Assembly (NCBI RefSeq): GCF_054482595.1
Contig: NZ_JBTHVH010000001.1
Length of the DNA: 64,000 nucleotides
Direction: 5' to 3' (one strand)
From: a plasmid
Shown piece by piece: positions 9,011 through 60,200 of the stretch. A model generated the notes under the pieces. That model saw nothing but the letters and a program-made list of their open reading frames with translations. It was not told the origin of the DNA and did no database searches. The stretch's first letter is position 1; every line of letters begins with the position of its first letter. The position numbers were made by a program, and so were the translations under genes.

Positions 9011-9915
9011 TCACTATTACCAAAGAGCGACTACTGACAATCAAGCAGTGGCGCGAAACATACGGACCTGGTAGCAACGTTGTACTGCCAGCAGAAGAAG
9101 CGGAAGAACTGGCACGAATTGCTCTGGCATCGCTGGAGCAGAATGTACTATCGGGCAACTCTCCGCTTATTCCTGGTGAAGTGTTGTCCGCAATCCGGGA
9201 GGTTGCCAGGATTCGTGCCGATTTCGATGATTTTGACGGTGACAGGCGAGGTATCGGTGATTGTCTGGATGAGGCCGAGCAAGAGCTTATCGTTACCATT
9301 AACAAATATGCCAGTCAGTTGGCAGCAGAACCGATAGCGACTAATGACGTTCGAGAGCAAACAGCCGTTCCGCCAATACAGGCTGATGTCGCGCAAGCAA
9401 TTGAAAATCTCAAGCAGAAGTTAGTGGAATGCAATCGCTATAACTACTGCGCAGATGCAGTGAAGAACGTAGAGGATGCCTGCCGTGCTGTTAGCTATAG
9501 CCAAGCCGACAATCAGCCAGCATCTGGCAACCAGGCTGCCGAATCCAATCGCGGTAATGAGTGGACTGGCAATCCTGATATTGATAACGCCATCATCATG
9601 CTCGACCGCATAGATACGCTGGAAAATTGCGATGATGACCGTATTGAGGCTGTTAAGGCTGTTTTGCGTAGACTGGCTGGCAACTCTCCGGTAACTCCGG
9701 ATGGTTGGATAAGCTGTAGTGAGCGAATGCCGGATACCAAAACAGCCGTTCTTGTTGCCAGGGAGTTTGACAGGAAAGGTGACTGGCGAATGAAATGGGC
9801 GACTTACATCCCGGGGCATCCTGACGCTAATGATGGGTGGGTAATACCTGGTGCGTCGTGGATTCCATCACACTGGATGCCGCTACCAGAACCGCCGCAG
9901 GAGGTGAATCAATGA
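9007..9915 (+). CDS. hypothetical protein with DUF551-like C-terminus
   Basis: 302 aa; C-terminal DGWISCSERMPD...HWMPLPEPP resembles DUF551. Confidence 0.55.
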   Translation: MITITKERLLTIKQWRETYGPGSNVVLPAEEAEELARIALASLEQNVLSGNSPLIPGEVLSAIREVARIRADFDDFDGDRRGIGDCLDEAEQELIVTINKYASQLAAEPIATNDVREQTAVPPIQADVAQAIENLKQKLVECNRYNYCADAVKNVEDACRAVSYSQADNQPASGNQAAESNRGNEWTGNPDIDNAIIMLDRIDTLENCDDDRIEAVKAVLRRLAGNSPVTPDGWISCSERMPDTKTAVLVAREFDRKGDWRMKWATYIPGHPDANDGWVIPGASWIPSHWMPLPEPPQEVNQ

Positions 9916-9979
9916 GCTGGCCTGAAGCATTCACCACGGTAGGAATTGTGATGGCGGCAGCACTGGGTTTGTATTCAAT

Positions 9980-10231
9980 TTGTCGCTGGTGGTAACGATG
10001 GGAAAAATAACTTTTGTAGTCGAATTTGAGGATGGCAAAGAGCCACCTGTTAGCGCCAATCTTGATGTTGCTGGTGGCAGGCTTGTTTCGGTTCTATTTG
10101 GTGACTACCGAGATGACTTCTTCCAACCAGAAGAAGTTGATGTAGTGCGAGAGGCATTAAACGAGTTAAGTGTTGATAACGATGATGCTCATGCGGAAAT
10201 CATCCAAAAAATGGAACTGCTAACTCACTAA
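9980..10231 (+). CDS. hypothetical small acidic protein
   Basis: ORF only; start uncertain. Confidence 0.35.
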   Translation: MSLVVTMGKITFVVEFEDGKEPPVSANLDVAGGRLVSVLFGDYRDDFFQPEEVDVVREALNELSVDNDDAHAEIIQKMELLTH

Positions 10232-10279
10232 ATTATCAATTATGGTGCTATCACCTACGACACCGAGAGAAAATTTATA

Positions 10280-10402
10280 ATGTCAAAAGTAAATGTTTTG
10301 ATTTTTTCAGCAATTGTTGGCTTTGGTTTTACTGCCGGAGTGCAGATTTATATTACGTGGGAAAAAATCATCAACTACGCATGGAGTTGTTTTATTAAGT
10401 GA
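10280..10402 (+). CDS. candidate small membrane peptide (40 aa)
   Basis: MSKVNVLIFSAIVGFGFTAGVQIYITWEKIINYAWSCFIK; hydrophobic; below ORF-track cutoff. Confidence 0.25.
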   Translation: MSKVNVLIFSAIVGFGFTAGVQIYITWEKIINYAWSCFIK

Positions 10403-10409
10403 GGTAAGT

Positions 10410-10703
10410 ATGTGGAGAGGTAATAGTCATGGCAAAAGCCAGATGATACTTACCGAATATCAGTTTGACCATAAAACCAATAAATCACGTTCAGTATATT
10501 TGCTTCGGCACAATAGCCGCGTAAGGAATACCGTGCTGGAGCAAAATCTGACTGTTGAAATAGATAGTTACGGGGGCTTCAAGCCAACAATTTCGCTTGA
10601 TGATTTTCCTCGTGGTTTAAGCGAAAGAGAAGCAATGCTGAAATTAGCAGAATGGCTACAAAGATTAAGCATTGCTATTGAAGATAACTGGTCTGAACCT
10701 TAA
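10410..10703 (+). CDS. hypothetical protein
   Basis: ATG with GAGGTAAG SD inside ORF-track ORF 10314..10703. Confidence 0.4.
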   Translation: MWRGNSHGKSQMILTEYQFDHKTNKSRSVYLLRHNSRVRNTVLEQNLTVEIDSYGGFKPTISLDDFPRGLSEREAMLKLAEWLQRLSIAIEDNWSEP

Positions 10704-10709
10704 ATTTAT

Positions 10710-11084
10710 ATGATGACACTAAAACATTTTCTTGACCGCCCATTATGGGCGGCAGCCGCAGGCTATGACTTTAATTATATGGATTGCATGTCTTATACCG
10801 CCAATGCATACGACTATTCCTTCAGTCTGCTGCTTAATTCTTTAAGAATATTGCCGCAAACAGAAGTTGGAGAGCTTCATTTATGGCTATTGGGCTTTAT
10901 CGCGGCTGTCGTTGGTATTGCTGTATGGCCTTTTATTTTCTGGCTGGTGGCTGTTGTAGTGTGGTTTAAGTGCAAGACATACCGGAAAAAGTATTTCTTA
11001 GGTGATGGAATGACTGATATTGCCAAAATGAACATTGAAGAATGGACTAAGGAATGTGAAAAGAAATGGCGCAAAAAGAAATGA
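10710..11084 (+). CDS. putative membrane protein (124 aa)
   Basis: hydrophobic segment LWLLGFIAAVVGIAVWPFIFWLVAVVVWF. Confidence 0.5.
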   Translation: MMTLKHFLDRPLWAAAAGYDFNYMDCMSYTANAYDYSFSLLLNSLRILPQTEVGELHLWLLGFIAAVVGIAVWPFIFWLVAVVVWFKCKTYRKKYFLGDGMTDIAKMNIEEWTKECEKKWRKKK

Positions 11085-11923
11085 CCAGAATAACTGAAGA
11101 GCGCATATCAGAGATTATTTCCCGTATCGAAATGTATGGTCACGGTGCTGGATATACGGCAGATGAAGGATTGGAAATAGCCCAGCAGATGCTGGCCTTG
11201 AGACAAAAAGAGCAACATGAAAGTAATACGTGTAGATTGAATTTTGAGCATTGGCTGGAACAGCAACGCGGAAAAATCGATGTGGACTGTGGTTGTGTGT
11301 CCACTGAAACATTCATGCACTGGCTGTGGGTAGCTTACGAGGCTGGCAACTATCCGGATATTCCGGATAGTTCGGTGCCAGCGCCAGGAAAGGGCGTCAC
11401 CGGTGAACGTATCCGCATTAAGCCGCATGTTTATCGCGAACTGGTTAACCGTCTCCACGATACAGCGATCAAGTGTGCTGGCACCCAGCAATTACGAGAA
11501 AGAATTAGCCGTGTTTTGGGCGACGTTATTACACCAGATCATCATAAACAAGCCGAGAAAAGTGACCTGGAAAGGTGTCACCTTGAGGCGGCATTAAACA
11601 TTAAGCCGGGGCATACGCTTGGCATTATTGATGCACTATTGGTTCATAAGATGGCCAGGGCTTTATTGCCGCTGGTGGCTGAAAAAGAGAACGCGAGCCT
11701 CAAAAAAATGCTGTCGCGGGCGGAAAGGGAATTATCAGGCAAATTATTGCCAGAAGAACTGCCACCAGCAGATATACCAGATCGAGTGTCCCAGTGGATG
11801 AAGTCTTTTGGTTTGCCGTGGGAGGCTTTTTGGTGCTACGACCATCGCAGATGGTGTGATGAACTTGATAGCAATTTTCCCTACTTTGCGGAAGGGAACA
11901 CCTGCCCTCAATGCAGGGGATAG
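11066..11923 (+). CDS. hypothetical protein (285 aa)
   Basis: ORF; C-terminal CPQCRG Cys motif. Confidence 0.55.
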   Translation: MAQKEMTRITEERISEIISRIEMYGHGAGYTADEGLEIAQQMLALRQKEQHESNTCRLNFEHWLEQQRGKIDVDCGCVSTETFMHWLWVAYEAGNYPDIPDSSVPAPGKGVTGERIRIKPHVYRELVNRLHDTAIKCAGTQQLRERISRVLGDVITPDHHKQAEKSDLERCHLEAALNIKPGHTLGIIDALLVHKMARALLPLVAEKENASLKKMLSRAERELSGKLLPEELPPADIPDRVSQWMKSFGLPWEAFWCYDHRRWCDELDSNFPYFAEGNTCPQCRG

Positions 11924-37498: not shown

Positions 37499-37753
37499 TT
37501 ATCGACTTCGCCTGCGTGCCATATATTTGCGCACCGCGCGGCGTGGACAATCTGAAGCGGTTTCTTTCTGCTGCATCAATCTCGCGGCCATGCTCAAAAA
37601 TGTCAGGCACAGCCGAAGCCCGGCATACAATAGCGGTTCCAGTGGCCACGTTTCATTAAGCACATATACCGCCATGAAAATCGAGTCGAAAACTATCGCT
37701 GCCAGCGATAACTTCATTGTCGAAAGTCTGCGGAGCTGCCGGAGTTTATTCAT
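37499..37753 (-). CDS. hypothetical membrane protein downstream of lyz
   Basis: 84-aa ORF with start overlapping lyz stop. Confidence 0.3.
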   Translation of the reverse strand: MNKLRQLRRLSTMKLSLAAIVFDSIFMAVYVLNETWPLEPLLYAGLRLCLTFLSMAARLMQQKETASDCPRRAVRKYMARRRSR

Positions 37754-38303
37754 TGACCAGTCCCGTCAGGCAAAGCTGGCGTTCTTTTTCACGGCGAATC
37801 TTTAAACCTCGCAGGGGCACGCCGTTACTGTTCACAAAATCAGGGAGATGGTTACACATATTCACCCATTCCCCTTTCTGCGCCCACTTGTGGATGGACG
37901 TTTCGACTCGCATGCCTCGCGCTTTGCTGTAGTAGGTCCGTAAGCTATTGCATCCCATATTGAATGCCGCGCTTGTCATTGCACTAAAGGCATTATCGGG
38001 CATGTCTTTGCCCCGGAAGTGCTGATTAATACAGCGTTCAGCGATCAGGATATTCTTTTCCCAATCAGCGGCGATTTGCTGGTCGGTTTTTCGCACACCC
38101 GGCGTTACCCCGTGTGTATTACCGATCCCGTCAGTCCATACCCCCGCCGGGCACATGTATGGATCACGTCGGCAACCTTCAGCGTTACCAATCAGCTCAA
38201 GCCCCGCCTGGTTGGTTCGCACATTGCCATTACCCATTACGATGGTAATCATCACCGCGATAGCGCAAATTGCACCGCCTCCTGCGGCTGTTTTTCCCTT
38301 CAT
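37746..38303 (-). CDS. lyz: SAR endolysin (T4-lysozyme family)
   Basis: 185 aa; N-terminal Gly/Ala-rich SAR segment AAGGGAICAIAVMITIVMG. Confidence 0.9.
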   Translation of the reverse strand: MKGKTAAGGGAICAIAVMITIVMGNGNVRTNQAGLELIGNAEGCRRDPYMCPAGVWTDGIGNTHGVTPGVRKTDQQIAADWEKNILIAERCINQHFRGKDMPDNAFSAMTSAAFNMGCNSLRTYYSKARGMRVETSIHKWAQKGEWVNMCNHLPDFVNSNGVPLRGLKIRREKERQLCLTGLVNE

Positions 38304-38471: not shown

Positions 38472-38960
38472 GTGGCACAACGCGGTGTAAACAAAGTCAT
38501 CCTGATTGGTACCCTGGGGCAAGACCCGGAGATCAGGTATATACCAAATGGCGGAGCGGTCGGAAGACTAAGCATCGCAACAAATGAATCATGGCGCGAC
38601 AAGCAAACGGGCCAACAGAAAGAGCAAACAGAATGGCATAGAGTCGTTTTGTTCGGGAAACTTGCTGAAATTGCGAGTGAGTATTTACGAAAAGGTTCTC
38701 AGGTCTACATCGAAGGGAAACTTAAAACCCGTAAGTGGACAGATGACGCCGGTGTAGAACGTTACACGACGGAAATTATCGTCAACCAGGGCGGCACCAT
38801 GCAAATGATCGGCGCTCGCCGTGACGATTCACAGTCCTCAAATGGCTGGGGGCAATCGAACCAACCTCAAAACCACCAGCAATACAGTGGTGGCGGTAAA
38901 CCTCAGAGCAACGCCAATAACGAACCTCCAATGGACTTTGACGACGATATTCCGTTTTAG
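38472..38960 (+). CDS. ssb: single-stranded DNA-binding protein
   Basis: [22 protein letters not shown]... OB-fold; C-terminal DFDDDIPF tail. Confidence 0.9.
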
Positions 38961-39162
38961 AGTTTATGAGTAAAAAACGACTGAAAGAAAAGCGGTGGTC
39001 AAGACGCCGACAAAAGCACGAACTCGCAAACAAACGCCAAAGTTGGCAATGGCACGCGCTTTTAACGAATAGAACACCCCGAGATATTGCTTTCGCTGGT
39101 GGGAAAACATTCCTAACCAACCTGAAGGCGCAATACATCAGTTTTTAAGCAGAGAAAAGACT

Positions 39163-39957
39163 ATGACAGCACAAAATACTAAAACCATTCAATACCGCCT
39201 GCGTAATGGCCAGAGTGTAGAAGTGACCATCAATAATGATGGTGTACCTGGCGAAAAGGTTTCGATCTCTGATCTGGCTATCGAAAAAACCATCATGTGC
39301 CACCTTGGCTTTACTGAAGAAGTGAGCAAAAAGCATGGTGTAGCTATCTGGCGCACAATGGATACTGGCATGCGCAGATTCATTACTGCTCGTACCCCTG
39401 GTATGACCATGATGGACCTCATACAGATTGCGCCGCTGTTTGAGTGTGAACCTTTGGATGTATTCAGCAATCCAGCTATCTGCCAGCAGTTATATGGTGA
39501 GATGAAACTCGCGGTTACCCCCATTGTGCTGCATGAAGGATCGCTTGCTGGCGTATGGAAAGTAGAGCGAATTTCAAGCTACATGCCATTCCACATCCAT
39601 GTCAACGGCGTAATCGCAGGTGAAAATCAACCTGTTTCCGTTATAAAGTCAGACCTCAATCGCGCAATTCTTGAAGCAAGTTGTCGAGTTATCGGCCTGG
39701 GCAAACAGTCTTATGTTTCCTTCCCGGCTGGTCCTGAAGGCCCGGCAGAAATTCTGATTATGGATGCTGATCTGCTCTGGCAAATACAGTTTCTGATTGG
39801 CAAAAGCATCATCCGTGCTGAAGAACTCGATCAGTACATTACCTGCACGATGACGGATGAAGTCAAAAGTGTGGCTATAGCCAATGCCCGGAACCTGTGT
39901 CGTGCTGCATTAACAGAACCGCAAGAAAACATTCCAGAAGAAACAGAAAGTGACTAA
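39163..39957 (+). CDS. hypothetical protein (264 aa)
   Basis: ORF with SD; followed by hairpin. Confidence 0.55.
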   Translation: MTAQNTKTIQYRLRNGQSVEVTINNDGVPGEKVSISDLAIEKTIMCHLGFTEEVSKKHGVAIWRTMDTGMRRFITARTPGMTMMDLIQIAPLFECEPLDVFSNPAICQQLYGEMKLAVTPIVLHEGSLAGVWKVERISSYMPFHIHVNGVIAGENQPVSVIKSDLNRAILEASCRVIGLGKQSYVSFPAGPEGPAEILIMDADLLWQIQFLIGKSIIRAEELDQYITCTMTDEVKSVAIANARNLCRAALTEPQENIPEETESD

Positions 39958-40154
39958 TAAAAACCCCGTCAGTTGGCGGGGAACTCCACGTCAAATGGCC
40001 AATTGTTATGTCAGCTAGCAGTTAAAGCGCCTAGTCATCATCTTTTAAAGAAGTCTTTTTAACTTACCTAAATTAGTGACACCTCCCGTTTTGCTTGCTA
40101 TTGTACGCATTCATGAATCTATTCATTAATCTATTCACAATAGTAATTAAAACT

Positions 40155-41459
40155 ATGGCTATACATGCAACAACAATCCGTAATTTGCTCAATCAAGGTC
40201 CTATGACACCAAGACAATTGGTTGAAAGACTAGGTGTTAGCCAACCAACGATATCTAGAGCATTAAGAGATCTTGGTGATGAAATCGTTAGGATCGGAAA
40301 TGGAAGATCTATTCAATATGCTTTACGAGACTCTTTTAGAGGATTCGAATCAGTCCCCATTTATCGTATAACTGAAGAGGGGTGTATTTGCGTTCTTGGT
40401 ACTCTCATTCCGGTGAGGCCAGAAGGCTATGTTATGGTTGAGGAAGGGAAAAATAACAGGCATAGCGATGGGTTACCTTGGTGGTTATTTGATATGCGTC
40501 CACAAGGCTTCCTTGGAAGAGCATATGCATCAGCATATGCTCTTGAACTTAACCTTCCCTCAAATCCAGAGCAATGGTCAGATACTGACGTGATCAAAGC
40601 CTTACTTAAGCATGGGCATGATGTTGTTGGTAATTTGTTAATTGGAGAGCAAGCACGCACGCATTTTTTAGAGATGCAGCCTCCTGTTCCTGTTAATCGT
40701 GAAAGTGAATATCCTGTATTAGCTTTAGCTGCTGGTGAAGGTGATGTGCCCGGTTCATCTGCTGGAGGTGAACAACCCAAATTTTGTACTTTCACAGAGC
40801 GTGGACATGTATTAGTGAAATTCTCTGCGCCTAACGACACCCCTATAAGTGAGCGTTGGAGAGATCTCTTGTTTGCTGAACATCTCGCATTAAAAGTTCT
40901 GGGGGTAGAAACAGAAGTTTTTGATTATAACGGTCAGAGATTCTTGGAAATTCCCCGATTTGATCGTGTTGGTCAACTAGGTCGGGTAGGTGTATTCTCA
41001 CTTCGTGCACTTGATGCAGAATTTGTTGGGAATGCAAGAGCAACATGGCCCTTGCTGGTTAAAGAGTTGGTAAAAAATAAGTGCGTCCATCCTGATGCGA
41101 TTATTATAGCAACAAGGCTATGGTCTTTTGGTTTGCTAATAGGCAATACCGATATGCATAATGGTAACCTATCGTTTATTAGTAGCCACGGACGCCCATA
41201 TCATATTGCTCCAGCCTATGACATGTTACCTATGGGTTTTGCTCCACGCTCTGGGGGAGCAATATCTAATGAGCTTAGAAAAACAGCACTACCAGACTTT
41301 GTAAGTCGAAAAATATGGGATGAATCTCTTGAATTGGCTGAAAAATTTTATGCATTGGCCTGTGAGTCCGACAAATTCTCAGCTAACTTTACTCCATGTT
41401 TAGAAGCGCTACGCATCCACCTAGATGATTGTAAGATACGCATAGCCCGCCTGGCATAA
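40155..41459 (+). CDS. HipA-family Ser/Thr kinase with N-terminal HTH (YjjJ/HipH-like architecture)
   Basis: HTH MTPRQLVERLGVSQPTISRALRDLG; catalytic-loop GNTDMHNGNLS; AT-rich; start could be 40095/40113. Confidence 0.7.
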   Translation: MAIHATTIRNLLNQGPMTPRQLVERLGVSQPTISRALRDLGDEIVRIGNGRSIQYALRDSFRGFESVPIYRITEEGCICVLGTLIPVRPEGYVMVEEGKNNRHSDGLPWWLFDMRPQGFLGRAYASAYALELNLPSNPEQWSDTDVIKALLKHGHDVVGNLLIGEQARTHFLEMQPPVPVNRESEYPVLALAAGEGDVPGSSAGGEQPKFCTFTERGHVLVKFSAPNDTPISERWRDLLFAEHLALKVLGVETEVFDYNGQRFLEIPRFDRVGQLGRVGVFSLRALDAEFVGNARATWPLLVKELVKNKCVHPDAIIIATRLWSFGLLIGNTDMHNGNLSFISSHGRPYHIAPAYDMLPMGFAPRSGGAISNELRKTALPDFVSRKIWDESLELAEKFYALACESDKFSANFTPCLEALRIHLDDCKIRIARLA

Positions 41460-41490
41460 ACAACAAATCCCGCCGATTGGCGGGATTTCT

Positions 41491-41799
41491 TCAATATACG
41501 ATCTGGTCTGCATGATCACCAAAATCATCGTCGTCGTCCTCATCGCCACCATCTACTGCTGGCCAATCAACAAACCAGCCAGCGTAAAGATGCAGCGTTC
41601 GGAGAACATCACTTGCGGGAGCATCAAGGGTGTTAACGAATCCCATATAGCTATTGGGATTTGCCCCAGCTATGGCTTCAGCGATCATGTCCTCGGTAAT
41701 GTCACCGGAGATAATGCTTAAACGCCCGGAAACTTCTTCATTATCATCAAATTCGATAATGGCATCTCCGCCTAATGGCGCTGCGATTTTAATCTGCAT
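41491..41799 (-). CDS. hypothetical acidic protein (102 aa), distal gene of dar operon
   Basis: ORF overlapping ddrB stop; poly-Asp C-terminus. Confidence 0.5.
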   Translation of the reverse strand: MQIKIAAPLGGDAIIEFDDNEEVSGRLSIISGDITEDMIAEAIAGANPNSYMGFVNTLDAPASDVLRTLHLYAGWFVDWPAVDGGDEDDDDDFGDHADQIVY

Positions 41800-44776
41800 T
41801 ATTTAGCTCCTTTGCCACACCTAATAACAGTTCCAGCAATCCGTCACCATTCATCAGTGATGCGGCAGCGGCCTCTTTGTCATGATACAACTGAAGAGCC
41901 ATAGAGAATACTTCCGTTGCTGACGTTTTGGAAATAGTCGGTGATTTCTGCCGAATTTTCCCGGTGTTACTTACTGAGGCTGGCGGGTATACCTTCGCCA
42001 TATAAATATTACTCAATCGAGATCTGAAGCACCATTCAGGCTTGCCACGCCCACCGATATTAACGAAAGATGGCTTATCCCCTTCAACATTGGCCTTCAG
42101 GAATGACCGGGCTTTCTCTAACAAACCAGGGTTACTGTACTCAAGATGATGACCCAGCTCGTGCCACAGTGCACTTGCATTTTCATCGTTCAAATTGACA
42201 GCAACAACACCATTAAGATTTGCATATGCCCTTCCCTGGTGGTGAACCACCTTTGATAAGGTCGATATTTTCCCGCCGGTCAGGCGATAAATATCAGCAA
42301 GTTCCTTGCGCAGGTCTATCCCACCACTCTGTCCAGCGCGGGCTTCTTCCACTTCTTCCGTGATAAAAGAGTCGGCCCACTCAAGAGCTTTTTCTTCAGA
42401 TACGGATGAGTTGGCTATCGCACTATTCATGGCAGATAACACTTTCTCGTGGACCGAACCCATACTTCGCTGATTCATTTGCCAGCGTGTCTGCGGGTTA
42501 TATGAGAATCGCTTAAGTAGTTGGTCAAGATGCTCAAGTTCTTCTTCGCTGACATACTTTTTAGCCTCACCAATAATGCCGGGGAGAATATTGCCGTTAG
42601 GATTAAACGCTCGCGAAAGGAAGAGTTTCAGCGCCCCCATGCCCTCCGATGCTTCAATATCACCAATAACACGGTTAACAATGGCCGCACTCTTCGGATT
42701 AGCATCCGCCAACGCTCTGGCTACGATTTGCAGGGACGATACGACCTCACGCTGCATATCAGTCCTGATCTCATCAATAAACTCTGGCGTTATGCCGTGC
42801 TCTTTAAGGATATCCCTGCCTTCCGCCGTTACCCCATCGATATCACCGACATGTTTATTAACCTGACTTTGCAATGCCTTAAATGCCTTCAGAATTCCAC
42901 GGGCATCATCAGCTTTACTAACGGCCTTCCTGAATGCTGGCAAGAAGTCAGAGTTAACCTCATTTTGTTGATCGGCCCACTGAATGGAGGCTTCTTTCAT
43001 CTCGTCCAGAGTCAGATCACCCAACGCGGTATGGTCTGTGAATATGAGCGACAACCTCTGAACCATTTCTGCCAATGGTGATGCCGAATGCGCCGCGCTA
43101 AGGAATGCTTTCACCCTGGTTGGGCGAATGGAAAACCAGTCAATAGCTGGTGGCATATCTCCGTTTTTTATCGCCTGCGCTATCTCGTCAAAGCCATCGC
43201 GCCCAAGGGAGGATGCGTGATTTAACAAGCCGCGAAGTAACGAATTGCTGATACCGAATAATCGGCACCATTTTTTCACGTCGGCAACAGGCATTCGAAC
43301 AAAATGCGCAAGCACTTGTACAAGCTGTTCATCCTGGGGATCTGTGCGGGAAAGCAGCCTGATCAGATGAATAATGTCTTTGATGCCGGATGCCCGATGT
43401 AATAGCAAACTGGTATACGGAGCAACACCGTTGTAACTACCGCCGGAAACGGACTCGAAAAGACCGCCGGATATCCCTTGCATGCCTTCGTTTTCCAGTT
43501 CCTGAGACACCTGGCGAAGGATATCCTGTAACGACACATCACCACCGCCAAACATATCCCCCAGCGCCTGGCCCTGGTGCTGTAACTCATCATTGATACG
43601 TTGAGCCATCAATTTAAAGGCGGTGGCCATACGCTTCGCGCTACGGTTATTCGCGACGATGAACAACGCGAGCGCTTTCACTTCCGGGGCTGTTTCGCTG
43701 AACATATCCCCCTGAGCAATAACATCGATAATATGTTGGCCTGACTCCTTCGATTGCCTTACCAGGTCTACCGCATCTTTCAATGCCGCCAGCGCCTTTT
43801 TATCGAGACTATCCGCTGTCTCAATACCATCAACAATAGTTGTCACAGCCTGCTTGTGCGCTTCTCCTGATAAAGCCTGCATCTGGACAAAATCATTGGC
43901 TGCCGCATTAAGCGCCGTCAGAACATTACGCATATCCGGATCAGGTTCTTCTGCAACCATCCTTACCAGGCGCGCATCCTTATATGCCTTGGCAAAGATC
44001 GCGTTTTGTATACGGTCTACAAGTTGCCGTGTTGGTCGCCCATCTTCCGTTACAAGGCCAGCAGCCTGTGTGGCACCAACTTGCGTCATGAATCCGCGAA
44101 TAAACGCGTCATTACTGCGGCTAAGCAGATCTCCGCTTTCTGATGGGTTAAACAGCGTCATCATCGCCGGAGTTATGCTGTCAGCATCAACAAAAGCCTT
44201 TTCACTGGCTGCCATTTCCTGAAGATCAGAAATATTTGAGTCCTTGGCAAACTGAACGCGGTCAACCTTAGTTAACCGGCGGCGCACCAGTACCGGAGCC
44301 GCCATTGATTCAACCTTTTCAGGTCGTATGCCGAATTCGGTCGCATGATCAATCAGGTACTCACGATACCGATCCGCATTGCCGTCCTGATAGGCTTTGA
44401 TGATCCCCATGGTCCGTCCATTACCTGACTCAACGGCATTGTCCTCACCAATTATCGGCGCGCCATGGCTGGATAAACCGGAATCGGTAAGCTGGGCAGG
44501 ACGCAAATCCTTGGATATCTGGTTGACCTGAAGAAGACTGGATGCGCGGGTCCGGTCGCGCGGCTGAAGTTCCTGGGGATAGTCAGGGTTAATTTTCCCG
44601 TCCAGAGTATTGGATACCAAAAGAGCTGAGGCATCGACGATATCAAACGCTGTTTTTACCTCGTCTCCCTTCGCTGTCACCACATACGAAACCCGCCCGT
44701 AATTGGGCAGGTTTTTTAGCAGCTCGATCAGCGTTTCTATGCTGGTGGCCATTACCACCTGATCGCTTAAGCTCAT
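41789..44776 (-). CDS. ddrB: DdrB-like capsid antirestriction component (995 aa)
   Basis: Large ORF downstream of darA-ddrA; contains HExxH-like WHELGHHLE motif; synteny-based. Confidence 0.5.
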   Translation of the reverse strand: MSLSDQVVMATSIETLIELLKNLPNYGRVSYVVTAKGDEVKTAFDIVDASALLVSNTLDGKINPDYPQELQPRDRTRASSLLQVNQISKDLRPAQLTDSGLSSHGAPIIGEDNAVESGNGRTMGIIKAYQDGNADRYREYLIDHATEFGIRPEKVESMAAPVLVRRRLTKVDRVQFAKDSNISDLQEMAASEKAFVDADSITPAMMTLFNPSESGDLLSRSNDAFIRGFMTQVGATQAAGLVTEDGRPTRQLVDRIQNAIFAKAYKDARLVRMVAEEPDPDMRNVLTALNAAANDFVQMQALSGEAHKQAVTTIVDGIETADSLDKKALAALKDAVDLVRQSKESGQHIIDVIAQGDMFSETAPEVKALALFIVANNRSAKRMATAFKLMAQRINDELQHQGQALGDMFGGGDVSLQDILRQVSQELENEGMQGISGGLFESVSGGSYNGVAPYTSLLLHRASGIKDIIHLIRLLSRTDPQDEQLVQVLAHFVRMPVADVKKWCRLFGISNSLLRGLLNHASSLGRDGFDEIAQAIKNGDMPPAIDWFSIRPTRVKAFLSAAHSASPLAEMVQRLSLIFTDHTALGDLTLDEMKEASIQWADQQNEVNSDFLPAFRKAVSKADDARGILKAFKALQSQVNKHVGDIDGVTAEGRDILKEHGITPEFIDEIRTDMQREVVSSLQIVARALADANPKSAAIVNRVIGDIEASEGMGALKLFLSRAFNPNGNILPGIIGEAKKYVSEEELEHLDQLLKRFSYNPQTRWQMNQRSMGSVHEKVLSAMNSAIANSSVSEEKALEWADSFITEEVEEARAGQSGGIDLRKELADIYRLTGGKISTLSKVVHHQGRAYANLNGVVAVNLNDENASALWHELGHHLEYSNPGLLEKARSFLKANVEGDKPSFVNIGGRGKPEWCFRSRLSNIYMAKVYPPASVSNTGKIRQKSPTISKTSATEVFSMALQLYHDKEAAAASLMNGDGLLELLLGVAKELNNAD

Positions 44777-57202: not shown

Positions 57203-60200
57203 TCAACTCTCGCGTAGTCATTCATCAACGGATCATCAATTGACAGTGGTACCGTGCGCATAACGCCCGGCTGAGGCGTGCTGACCTTTACGACAGTTCC
57301 CTGGCCTTTCGCCGAGTCTTTGGTGTGCTCTTCAATCCTGGCAAGCAATGAGGTCATCTGCGCAAACAGCCGCTTCGTTTCACCATCAAGTGAAACGGTA
57401 TTATCAGCCAACTGCATTGTCGGCTTGGCACCGGAACCGCCAAGGTCACTAATAACCTGCCCGTCTATCTGCATACGACCGGTTGGTTGCTGCAAATCGT
57501 TGGCGGCAGTCGTCACCTTGGACGTGGAGGCTGGTTCAGGCGCATTATTTTTCCGCATCCCCGGCGAGTTGCGGAGTTTATCGAATAGTCCATCAATCCC
57601 CATTTGTGCGCCGAGTTGGTCAAAGTAACTTGAGTTGCTGGCCACCGGACGCGCCTCTTCAACTGGCATCGGAATATCAACATACACATTGCCAGCTGCT
57701 GTTGCGGTCCCCTTCCCTCGTGCACGTTCTTCGAGCGTTCCCTGAACGACTTCCCGACGCATACCCCGGCCATTCATGAATTTGTTGACCAGATCGTTAA
57801 CGCCAACAGCATTGCCGATTTTGTCTACCAGACCGCCTTTCTCAAACGGGCTATCACCAGGGGTAAACGCCAGGCCAGTAGACTGATCGATAACAGCGTT
57901 ATCAGGCAGTGGTCCCCTCACTCCATATTGCGCCCCACCCTGTGCTCCTGCTCCAGGTGTATAGATTTCACCACCTAAATAGCGAGCACGATGAGTATTG
58001 ACCTTGATCGCGTACTCACGGTTTTCTTTCGATAAGTCACCTGTGCCTTTTTTCCACTTATTGATAGTGCCAAACCCAGCGTTATATGCAGTGATGGCCT
58101 CGTTTAAGTCTCCATTGGCTTGCTTCAGATACTTGCTCATGAGAAGAGCCGCAGCTTCTGCCGATTTCACAGGATCAAACGATTCACCTTCAGCTAAGCC
58201 AGTCTCTTCACGAGCAATCCCCGTGAACTGAAACATTCCCAGAGCACCGGTTTGGGATTTTGCATACGGATTACCACCAGATTCAGTTGCAGCAATCGCG
58301 TAAAGAGTGCCTTCTGGAAGACCATATTTATTCTCTAGTTCAGCAAAATACGGAGCCAACTTATCGAGATTTGCCTTACCTTCAGATCCAAGACTTCCGA
58401 CTTTTACATCCAAGCGGCCATTGTTGTAGGTATCCGCAGCTTTCTGAATGTCACTCCTGGTGCCAGTGGTATTAAGCGACGATGATGACGAGCTATTTTG
58501 ACCAATAGCTTTATCAATTTTCTGCAACGCGCTATTGCCCGTTTCTACGGCATTTGCATTGATAATCTGATTCGCAGTTTCTTTAACTGTTTTATTGCTA
58601 TCTTTCGCCGTGTCCAGTGCCGCATTTATCACGCGGGTAACAATATTAGTCTGTTTGGCATCGGATTCAGTTTTAGAATCAGATGTCTCCTGGTGGCTAT
58701 TAACCGGAGCTTTTAACTCTGGAGTGATTTCTTTGGCATTAGCCTCGCTATTAACCGGAGCTTTTAACTGTGGAGCGATTTCTTTCGCATTAGCCTCGCT
58801 ATTAACCGGAGCTTTTAACTCTGGAGTGATTTCTTTCGCATTAGCCTCGCCGATCGGATTGGGTATTTTTGATACAATCATTGCCGCAGGGGTATTTTTA
58901 ACGGCATCAACCGCTGCATCTAATGCTTTACCAGGTAAATTTTTAACCCCATCCCAAATATTACCAGCCGCCTCTTTAATGTGTTTCCCTGGGTTCTTAA
59001 TGAAATCAATTGCACTATCAATTGCATCACTGAAAACCTGTTTCAGGTTATCAACAGTAAAGAAGTCTTTGATGGCATCCAGCTTTTCAAGCAGCTTATT
59101 AGATGTATCGCTAAACCATGCTGAAACAGCATCACCAATCTTTGCTGTGTAATCTTCGAACTTGGTAGAAATGGTGTCGCCAAGGTTAGAAATATATGTT
59201 TCTAAGTTGGTAATCCCACTATCAATGGCCTGGGCAATACTTTCCGTCGAAAATGATTGCAACATATTGCCGATATCCTCAAATCCAAGTGATTTGAGAA
59301 CCTCACCAATGGCGCTGCTAATACCAGATACCAGTCCCCCCATATCAAGAACATTGGCTAACGTATAAGCGGCTTTTTGCTGGAATGATGGATCTTGTCC
59401 TGATTTAAGCCCAAACGCTCGACGTTGCGCTTCTGTATCATTCCAACCGGTTACCGCATCATAAATACCTCCAGCCACTGTGCCGACTAAGGGAATTGCG
59501 CGTAACGCCCCTTTACCAACTGCCTTTAATCCAAGTTTACCTGCTGCCCGGGCAGCCAAATCTCCACCTTCATGGGCGATAGTCTTCTTGCCACCACCGC
59601 GTAGCATTCCTACAAGTTTCTTTGCCCCCAGAGCGCCAAAAGCGAGTGCTCCAGCTTTTTTCAGCATGCCACGCCCCATTAACAACGACGCGACGCCACC
59701 GGCCCCCTTCCCTAACAGGCTAAATAGTTTGGACAGCAAGCCGCCCTTCTTTTTCCCGGTGTTTTTGGCTATCTGATCAAGGGCGCTGAGAATCTTGTCA
59801 TTGCCCTCTTTAATTTCGCTGGTCTGCTCCTGAAGTTCCTGAACTGTCCGTTTTTGGGTGTTAACCTGAACGACATCGGCACTATTTTGCGATTTACGCC
59901 TAAAAAAACCTTTTCTACGGCTGTTATCGTCATTGCCACGAATCACATCGGCAATAGACTTTCTGGCACCATTAAGCGATCCACCAACTTCTTTTGATAT
60001 CCCGCCAAGCTCCTTCCCTGCTGCCCACAATGGACCAGCAACGGCATAACCTAACGCATCAACGGCACGAGTCTCTGAAGGGTTACCTATGCCTTCAGCT
60101 ACTTTTGACAGTTTTTTTAATAAACCTGATTCAGCATTTAGACGCTCATCATCCTCTTTACGCCTGGCCTTTTCAGCACGTTCAGCACGGGCATCTTCCG

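Follow-up and report, generated by a model that had tools for sequence, protein, structure and literature searches.

The closest described relative of the gene considered here is hipH (yjjJ) of Escherichia coli K-12; the gene itself is a hipH copy carried by a P1-like phage-plasmid, within a stretch of 64,000 nucleotides (hereafter the window) of plasmid contig NZ_JBTHVH010000001.1, RefSeq assembly GCF_054482595.1. K-12 HipH (clade X, PMC8262856) joins a winged helix-turn-helix (HTH) and a HipA-type kinase with four kinase motifs in one chain, and its gene is solitary; the plasmid gene has the same traits. YjjJ of K-12 is toxic when overproduced and acts as a Ser/Thr kinase on CsrA and RpmE, and HipB provided in trans rescues the cells (PMC9948734). 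A second study reported that toxicity requires the HTH and is not abolished by deletion of the catalytic motif, that the protein is nucleoid-associated and cleaves DNA in vitro, an activity inhibited by cyclic di-GMP (c-di-GMP), and that c-di-GMP induces hipH through its native promoter (PMC11452175). The published mechanisms of K-12 HipH toxicity disagree, being a kinase in one case (PMC9948734) and a DNase in the other (PMC11452175), and the control of HipH is an acknowledged open question, with no antitoxin gene and an unresolved role for the HTH (PMC8262856). No operator, repeats or autoregulation are mentioned in the HipH papers that we found. Here we describe an array of phased boxes at the hipH promoter, by means of which HipH is likely to repress its own gene; this is in our judgement the best overall explanation of the low-GC islet in which the plasmid gene lies. 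This conserved operator architecture appears to be undescribed in the literature.

Two other systems invite comparison. HipBA has the same kinase fold and, like the plasmid locus, an HTH-mediated operator array overlapping the promoter, which suggests autoregulation. The HipBA operators are palindromic TATCC-N8-GGATA sites, whereas the plasmid boxes are direct repeats phased by 12 bp; the plasmid locus is also without a HipB gene, its HTH being fused in cis and of winged-helix rather than Xre type, and the HipA_N and Couple_hipA domains go undetected by Pfam. Like HipT of HipBST (PMC8262856), the plasmid protein carries a pair of serines in its Gly-rich loop, and its kinase core is nearest in sequence to the solved HipT(Lp) structures. 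It differs by an extra N-terminal region including the winged HTH, and its locus has no HipS or HipB genes.

The sigma-70 promoter predicted upstream of hipH consists of a -35 element GTGACA (40076-81), a 17-nt spacer and an extended -10 element TGcTATTGT (40096-40104; hexamer 40099-40104). An earlier note on this DNA, made from the letters alone, had pointed to two 10-bp direct repeats just upstream of the gene and proposed that they could be an autoregulatory operator. Its coordinates were exact, the 10-mer AATCTATTCA being found at 40116-40125 and 40128-40137, and the count of two fell short: the repeats belong to a three-box array, to which a further box inside the coding sequence has to be added. 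On the two strands of the 64 kb there are only three exact copies of the 9-mer ATCTATTCA, clustered within 200 bp (40117, 40129 and 40307), and the first box of the array is a degenerate copy whose ATTCA core is retained in the second plasmid allele. Matches with one mismatch are at chance level in the window (17 observed versus 15 expected), so that nothing in these 64 kb of the phage-plasmid points to a HipH regulon. The sole other 10-mer of the window repeated at offset 12 lies at 59005-59026 (ATCAATTGCA ct ATCAATTGCA).

Examination of homologous loci revealed the generality of this arrangement. We fetched 80 loci (48-71% identity; Enterobacterales, Rhodocyclales, Nitrosomonadales, Burkholderiales and others), corresponding to 79 distinct upstream regions. 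At least two ATTCA motifs are present within the 60 nt before the start in 77 of the 79, and at least three in 60; the mean is 3.0 per 60 nt, while six control windows taken from these loci gave 0.00-0.14. The spacing between cores is exactly 12 bp in 136 cases, the next commonest value accounting for 5. Throughout, the boxes are oriented with the gene's strand, the reverse-strand motif being at background, and the unit consensus is T-A-T-C-T-A-T-T-C-A followed by two free bases. Chains of three boxes were found in 49 loci, of four in 14 and of two in 12. When 76 loci are aligned on the first box, a -35 element TGAC (-32..-29), a 17-nt spacer and a -10 element TAnAAT (-10..-5) emerge, the final base of the latter being the first base of the box; a separate promoter scan had picked out the corresponding site in the window. 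Because the -10 element overlaps the 5' end of the box, transcription is predicted to start inside box 1, and the array would span roughly +1 to +30, which is the classical position for a repressor. The end of the last box lies 4-5 nt before the ATG in 48 loci and 15-17 nt before it in 25, the window having 17 nt. A scan of IMG/VR for TCTATTCA-N4-TCTATTCA returned at least 120 matches, of which 5 adjoin hipH, the two-box pattern being too short for a database of that size.

In K-12, ATCTATTCA occurs three times in 12-bp tandem between the -10 element and the ATG, which the array abuts, and a fourth copy lies ~90 nt upstream. Six more loci of the K-12 clade (Salmonella, Citrobacter, Cedecea, Erwinia, Kosakonia and Pantoea), all with deoD to lplA/smp synteny, have proximal boxes abutting the ATG in 12-bp register, mostly as three perfect copies (one or two are degenerate in Citrobacter and Pantoea), as well as a distal box 85-95 nt upstream; the Salmonella promoter, TTGACA-17-TTAAAT, lies downstream of the distal box. 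The K-12 and plasmid proteins agree in the recognition-helix residues S-Q-x-T-x-S-R. They differ in length (443 versus 434 aa), are 35% identical and belong to separate subclades; the K-12 gene occupies a syntenic deoD-lplA locus, the plasmid gene a phage-plasmid, and the auxiliary box is upstream in the former (~-90) and intragenic in the latter (~+153).

This intragenic box is encoded by the codons AGA TCT ATT CAA (R-S-I-Q) in the wing of the HTH, and the 178 bp that separate it from box 3 amount to ~17 helical turns. All 73 genes of the per-locus table, and all 71 that could be compared in a 77-gene codon alignment, use ATT for Ile53, even genes of 65-72% GC in which ATT accounts for 0-30% of the remaining Ile codons. 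From each gene's own codon usage, the naive log10 P is -35.6, an upper bound on significance as the sequences are related. The Ile53 column ranks first for codon invariance among 215 columns of conserved amino acid, and other conserved Ile columns favour ATC. The neighbouring codons prefer NNA, TCT/GCT and CAA, which together spell the box. The K-12 clade, with its distal box upstream, has no such intragenic box, nor has one Burkholderiales subclade. Auxiliary operators inside coding regions are known from lac (O2 in lacZ) and gal (OI in galE). As in those systems, hipH combines putative promoter-proximal operators with a distal copy in coding sequence, here at synonymous positions; unlike them, it has the distal site in the putative repressor's own gene, in the segment encoding the HTH wing. 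A second patch of synonymous constraint covers codons 21-25 (CAA CTn nnT GAA Ann) in the clade of 434-aa proteins, where codon 23 ends in T in ~90% of genes regardless of the amino acid. In neither orientation is this patch a HipH box, and the Burkholderiales subclade without the intragenic box lacks it too.

The boxes change when the recognition helix does (compared as window residues 29-35). The 434-aa clade combines the helix S-Q-P-T-x-S-R with ATCTATTCA and the K-12 clade combines S-Q-A-T-F-S-R with the same box, ATCTATTCA. In the Burkholderiales subclade, S-Q-P-T-(V/A)-T-R goes with TTAT(A/G)ATTCA, and in a clade from IMG/VR (~38% identity), (T/N)-R-x-T-L-S-R goes with ATTCG boxes 12 bp apart. 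Two plasmids, pPNAP03 of Polaromonas and pVF1 of Vitreoscilla, have S-R-A-T-L-M-R with ATCGTTTCA and S-V-A-T-L-H-R with AATCTTCTCA (also given as ATCTTCTCA), respectively. As an example of the code, Gln at helix position 30 is found with ...ATTCA and Arg with ...ATTCG. Such joint change is the pattern predicted for a cognate protein-operator pair, and the operator proposed in the earlier note receives strong comparative support from it, from the 77 of 79 loci and from the K-12 clade. On these comparisons the boxes are probably HipH's own operators. We lean, by a smaller measure, towards the broader proposal that the HipH family uses an undescribed operator code, in which phased boxes and a distal box co-vary with the helix and HipH would act as a sequence-specific autorepressor, its molecules assembling on the boxes as a directional array.

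Alternatively, the boxes could be bound by a host transcription factor. A response regulator such as TorR, which recognises direct repeats (CTGTTCATAT boxes), would be an example. Direct repeats are typical of OmpR/PhoB-type regulators, and the K-12 hipH promoter is under c-di-GMP control by an unidentified route (PMC11452175). This explanation is nevertheless very unlikely: the array travels with hipH over Gamma- and Betaproteobacteria, onto plasmids and onto the phage-plasmid, the boxes shift when the HipH recognition helix shifts, the period is 12 bp and not 10-11, and the exact box is found nowhere in the window but at hipH.

In the autorepression that we favour, HipH would bind the boxes through its own winged HTH, one molecule per box and head to tail, and molecules at the proximal boxes might loop to the distal one. 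Bound HipH would repress hipH transcription and so keep a potentially toxic kinase low and self-limited in the lysogen, the start codon without a Shine-Dalgarno sequence further limiting synthesis. HipH that accumulates or is released from DNA would, judging from the K-12 homologue, phosphorylate host proteins and/or act on the nucleoid, arresting growth and division. An autorepressor released by a ligand would also account for the reported induction by c-di-GMP at the promoter level.

Several points weigh against this reading. The covariation amounts to about five clade-level events, counted without phylogeny correction, from which binding is inferred. A period of 12 bp is off the helical repeat of DNA, and winged HTHs of the ArsR/MarR type usually bind palindromes as dimers. 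Two copies are exceptions to the array, one on an Aeromonas plasmid with a single ATTCA and one in Diaphorobacter with no ATTCA at the annotated start. Toxicity and kinase activity of the plasmid protein are extrapolated from a homologue of 35% identity whose mechanism is disputed. Searches with PADLOC-DB 2.0 gave only marginal short matches (E-value 2e-4 or weaker, 30-50 residues), and carriage by ~8% of P1-like plasmids means that hipH is dispensable for the element. Finally, all boxes of the 434-aa clade, the intragenic one included, are on the sense strand, downstream of the -10 element and within or at the edge of the transcript, where a role in RNA is conceivable.

Such a role would make the boxes AUUCA repeats in a leader without a Shine-Dalgarno sequence, forming a translational control element or enhancer bound by HipH or by a host factor. 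Besides the strand and position of the boxes, it would fit the distance of the last box to the ATG (4-5 or 15-17 nt) and the patch at codons 21-25, whose ...TGAAA could pair with UUCA; indeed no Shine-Dalgarno sequence was seen upstream of the hipH ATG. We regard action on the mRNA as improbable. The -10 element overlaps the 5' end of box 1, of which the RNA would contain only a part; in the K-12 clade the distal box is located beyond the Salmonella promoter and would not be transcribed from it; the reader domain is a winged HTH of DNA-binding type; and the leader has no stable structure (z = 0.39) and matches no Rfam family. A reading at the DNA level is favoured because box 1 straddles the predicted start, the K-12 distal box is upstream of the promoter and the reader is a winged HTH.

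The Aeromonas exception was read in pKAM330_1 of Aeromonas hydrophila (L233). HipH homologues of 54-56% identity, each with the standard SQPTLSR helix, are encoded by this plasmid and by four more from Aeromonas (111-135 kb), and the single upstream ATTCA refers to the pKAM330_1 copy. In Pantoea dispersa DSM 30073, the hipH homologue (L031:2501-3799) has an internal stop, either as a pseudogene or through a sequencing error, and the box array is retained.

Box specificity bears on the host chromosomes that the phage-plasmid meets. A full K-12-type hipH was found in 1,347 of 5,426 complete E. coli genomes, and a further 3,189 (~59%) have only a 123-nt K-12 hipH upstream segment, the open reading frame (ORF) being replaced; in these orphan arrays the distal box and three tandem ATCTATTCA copies are intact. 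In place of hipH there are ~290 bp with an HTH pseudogene on the opposite strand, as in the deoD-lplA interval of strain WP5-S17-ESBL-10 (L232:2519-2622). The K-12-type gene is syntenic (deoD-hipH-lplA/smp) from Escherichia to Erwinia and the 434-aa type occurs in varied contexts; in some genera, namely Enterobacter, Pantoea, Scandinavium and Erwinia, both paralogues occur, with the same box sequence. Plasmid and chromosomal HipH are expected to cross-regulate, since the helix residues S-Q-x-T-x-S-R and the boxes are common to both, and plasmid HipH would meet cognate sites on most host chromosomes because full hipH genes or orphan arrays persist there. If this is true, the phage-plasmid protein shares its specificity with the host hipH promoter and with the orphan arrays of ~59% of genomes, and a toxin-regulator is introduced by a mobile element into a host circuit for which a response to c-di-GMP has been reported. 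A second HipH is encoded by about 8% of sequenced E. coli P1-like plasmids, many of them clinical or from livestock; cross-talk between it and the host copy is probable and could bear on growth arrest, tolerance or phage exclusion. The conserved array makes the regulation of HipH, acknowledged as open (PMC8262856), directly testable.

Features of the hipH islet and of its surroundings, in window coordinates
Feature	Position	Strand	Remarks
hipH (yjjJ) coding sequence	40155..41459	+	434 aa plus stop; no upstream Shine-Dalgarno sequence
Predicted sigma-70 promoter	40076..40104	+	Promoter scan; homologue consensus at equal distance from first box
Box 1, degenerate, ACGCATTCA	40105..40113	+	Overlaps predicted transcription start; 12-bp register with boxes 2 and 3
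Box 2, ATCTATTCA	40117..40125	+	Family consensus TATCTATTCA
Box 3, ATCTATTCA	40129..40137	+	Family consensus TATCTATTCA
Intragenic box, ATCTATTCA	40307..40315	+	Codons 51-54; 178 bp downstream of box 3
Second synonymous-constraint patch, CAAyTnnnTGAAA	40215..40229	+	Codons 21-25; 434-aa clade
Winged HTH domain	40155..40334	+	Residues 1-60; Pfam, DSSP of AlphaFold2 model; ArsR/CzrA-type fold
Recognition helix SQPTISRAL	40239-40265	+	Residues 29-37
Gly-rich (P-) loop GSSAGGEQPKF	40752..40784	+	Residues 200-210; two serines; invariant in 58 homologues
Catalytic loop GNTDMHNGNLSF	41142..41177	+	Residues 330-341 (D333, N338)
Mg-binding motif YDMLPM	41217..41234	+	D356
1.49-kb low-GC insert	39969..41456		blastn junctions and alignment versus SJ46 empty site; GC
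Left boundary hairpin CCCCG-N8-CGGGG	39964..39981		Diverged copy of single SJ46 isaA/hxr terminator
Bidirectional terminator hairpin	41465..41488		Shared with convergent hxr; homologous to single SJ46 hairpin
lyz	37746..38303	-	
ssb	38472..38960		
isaA-like gene	39163..39957	+	Left flank; 264 aa; 94-97% DNA identity to SJ46/P1 isaA; phrog_2326
hxr	41491..41799	-	Right flank, convergent; 102 aa
ddrB	41789..44776	-	

The plasmid protein almost certainly belongs to the HipH/YjjJ family of Gerdes et al. (PMC8262856). It scores 533.6 bits against the YjjJ equivalog model NF007297 of NCBIfam (cut-off 401; residues 4-434) and aligns end to end with K-12 HipH (b4385, P39410; 35% identity, E-value 6e-90); among its best 120 database relatives, every named one is called YjjJ. 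Pfam recognised HipA_C (4e-15) and, at residues 4-43, the winged HTH families HTH_5 and MarR_2. The protein of ~435 aa with an HTH and a HipA-type kinase announced in the earlier note is borne out at 434 aa, the catalytic-loop peptide that it quoted corresponds to residues 330-341, and of the family models that it named HipA_C and YjjJ/HipH matched; HipA_N did not, neither it nor Couple_hipA being among the 22 Pfam domain matches to the protein (E-value up to 10). From its sequence the product is a one-chain winged HTH and HipA-fold Ser/Thr kinase with all catalytic motifs intact. Alignments of 12 and of 58 homologues show no variation in the SAGGEQPKF loop, which two serines precede, or at D333, N338 and D356; because of this invariance across the 58, catalysis would be under selection. 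Plasmid HipH sits in a subclade separate from the K-12 protein, its closest relatives (at most 72% identity) being chromosomal YjjJ proteins of Pantoea, Hafnia, Serratia, Gibbsiella, Dickeya and Enterobacter.

Modelled with AlphaFold2 from the alignment of 58 sequences, the protein reached a predicted local distance difference test (pLDDT) score of 91.4 and a predicted template modelling (pTM) score of 0.88, with low pLDDT in the Gly-rich loop (201-205), which is thus flexible. The winged HTH covers residues 2-58, with helices 2-12, 19-26 and 30-43 and strands 44-47 and 54-58 forming a two-strand wing. Foldseek returned full-length HipA structures first (E-value 4e-9, TM-score 0.56), followed by HipT and CtkA, and matched the N-terminus to repressor folds of the ArsR/CzrA type. 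No solved structure was found for the HipH family itself, the nearest by sequence being Legionella HipT (8ezr, E-value 7.5e-6).

The ORF listing gives a single long frame, 40095..41459, opening at TTG. We place the start at ATG 40155, where the N-termini of homologues align and where the Prokaryotic Genome Annotation Pipeline (PGAP) starts the gene in identical plasmids. Both arguments disfavour TTG 40095, from which the longer form would be translated through the boxes. The ATG at 40113 was also rejected: it gives the 448-aa form, 14 codons longer, under which the protein is modelled in PHROGs (phrog_30447, of unknown function there), reads MNLFINLFTIVIKT... through the boxes and is probably a mis-call of the source annotation.

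Concerning activity, the two published mechanisms for K-12 HipH lead to an alternative for the plasmid protein, namely an HTH-dependent genotoxic DNase checked by c-di-GMP, with the kinase core secondary. The loss of K-12 toxicity without the HTH and its persistence without the catalytic motif would be explained, as would nucleoid localisation, in-vitro DNA cleavage inhibited by c-di-GMP and an induction at the promoter that would fit release of an autorepressor (PMC11452175). We consider this alternative quite unlikely, for the kinase motifs are invariant in 58 homologues, kinase activity and substrates were shown for K-12 YjjJ (PMC9948734), the AlphaFold2 model has no nuclease fold or motif, and the plasmid allele is just 35% identical to the protein assayed.

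The gene stands alone, and the absence of a separate HipB-like gene stated in the earlier note was confirmed. No candidate antitoxin ORF of at least 20 aa is present within the islet, and an upstream hipB gene for an Xre-type HTH antitoxin was sought at the plasmid locus and not found. Across 64 homologous loci from different genera, no family of flanking ORFs (at least 70 aa) recurs, the largest cluster comprising 5 loci. The neighbouring hxr was examined as a hidden HipB-like partner and rejected, because P1-like phages keep it whether or not the islet is present; its product has no NCBIfam HTH match. PGAP names the plasmid gene 'type II toxin-antitoxin system HipA family toxin', and with no partner gene this is a family label only and does not denote a two-gene module. 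Every part of the interpretation in the earlier note that could be tested computationally is supported.

The islet, a foreign insert, is a moron, predicted to form an independent transcription unit, in the variable isaA/hxr junction of a P1-like (IncY) phage-plasmid with the gene order lyz-ssb-isaA-like / islet / hxr-ddrB. As the earlier note had it, its DNA is AT-richer than the flanks, with a GC content of 0.419 for the insert; the window as a whole has 0.484 and each flank 0.50, and a value this low is reached by only 0.5% of windows of equal size. To the left of the insert, homology to Salmonella phage SJ46 extends to position 39968, and to its right it starts again at 41457. In the SJ46 empty site, the isaA stop, one hairpin terminator and the hxr stop are contiguous, and the window carries 1,488 additional bases. 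Two related hairpins bracket the insert; the left copy is diverged (12 of 18 stem-loop bases shared), and since its T-tract is on the minus strand only, read-through from isaA into hipH is possible. The hairpin may mark the site of recombination at which cargo is exchanged.

Other cargo found at the isaA/hxr site comprises the isaA end, IS1 and isaB in P1, as the earlier note had stated, nmpC/prt/odaA in P7, the ompD porin in JL22, a dGTPase-like gene in vB_EcoM-673R5 and an insertion sequence in RCS47. The junction is thus a hot spot for cargo, and in its anatomy the islet resembles other phage morons and the P1-like cargo at this site: conserved phage genes and hairpins flank it, a promoter of its own is predicted and its GC content is deviant. 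It differs in carrying a HipH kinase, a cargo present in no INPHARED phage record. No donor of the islet was identified among database relatives, the best proteins having at most 72% identity.

Candidate benefits of the gene are abortive-infection defence, an effect on host tolerance or biofilm physiology, and stabilisation, and any specific role of hipH in the phage-plasmid can be proposed with low confidence only. Our literature search found no paper linking yjjJ/hipH with P1-like elements. Anti-phage defence, in which infection would release or activate HipH and the protein would arrest the cell, is rather unlikely. It would suit a self-contained moron at a cargo hot spot, one that is occupied by a dGTPase-like gene in the P1-like phage vB_EcoM-673R5, dGTPases being a known type of anti-phage defence. 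HipA-family kinases with phage-linked regulators have been proposed (PMC8262856) and the K-12 homologue is toxic (PMC9948734), but the PADLOC matches are at noise level, no trigger or sensor is evident, and the gene's nearest relatives sit as ordinary genes on the chromosomes of Pantoea, Hafnia, Serratia and Enterobacter.

A toxin stabilising the plasmid by post-segregational killing, or a neutral passenger, is less probable still. A gene on a low-copy plasmid prophage, labelled by PGAP as a type II toxin-antitoxin toxin, would be in keeping with stabilisation, but there is no antitoxin gene and hence no evident mechanism of differential stability, and P1-type elements already carry phd-doc. 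Neutrality is at odds with the ORF being intact in 29 plasmids and with the divergence of the two plasmid alleles. These are 97.3% identical in DNA and differ in 14 synonymous and 10 non-synonymous codons, synonymous changes being in excess despite ~threefold fewer synonymous sites; the rough two-allele estimate of dN/dS (the ratio of non-synonymous to synonymous rates), ~0.24, points to purifying selection on hipH. The ATTCA cores are kept, so that the regulatory boxes are conserved between the alleles.

The whole islet (97-100% identity) is present in 29 of the 378 PLSDB plasmids that match the flank, or ~8% of P1-like plasmids; these are non-mobilizable plasmids of ~90-100 kb, IncY where checked, in which PGAP names the gene yjjJ. 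The plasmid gene is a member of a known family already named by automated annotation, and its presence there is only modestly novel. Among complete E. coli genomes having a match, 24 of 365 contain the islet. Neither a DNA search nor tblastn found the plasmid hipH in INPHARED phage records, and IMG/VR holds six P1-like copies as well as more distant homologues on other viral contigs. In E. coli PK-F-10122 an identical islet lies on a 5.18-Mb chromosome record (NZ_CM148631.1, 4437424-4439084), which may reflect an integrated P1-like element or a scaffolding artefact.

Two minor observations concern the rest of the window. The isaA region (38966-39957) is 96% identical to P1 isaA, which encodes 320 aa, and is read as a 60-aa ORF (38966..39148) followed by the 264-aa ORF (39163..39957), PGAP annotating only the latter; SJ46 has two ORFs there, of 281 and 260 aa, and the gene looks frameshifted or variable. 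Finally, the sole other stretch of the window as low in GC as the islet (0.417-0.425 in 1.5-kb windows) lies at ~9700-11700; it contains several small ORFs of 124-129 aa and may be a further acquired module.

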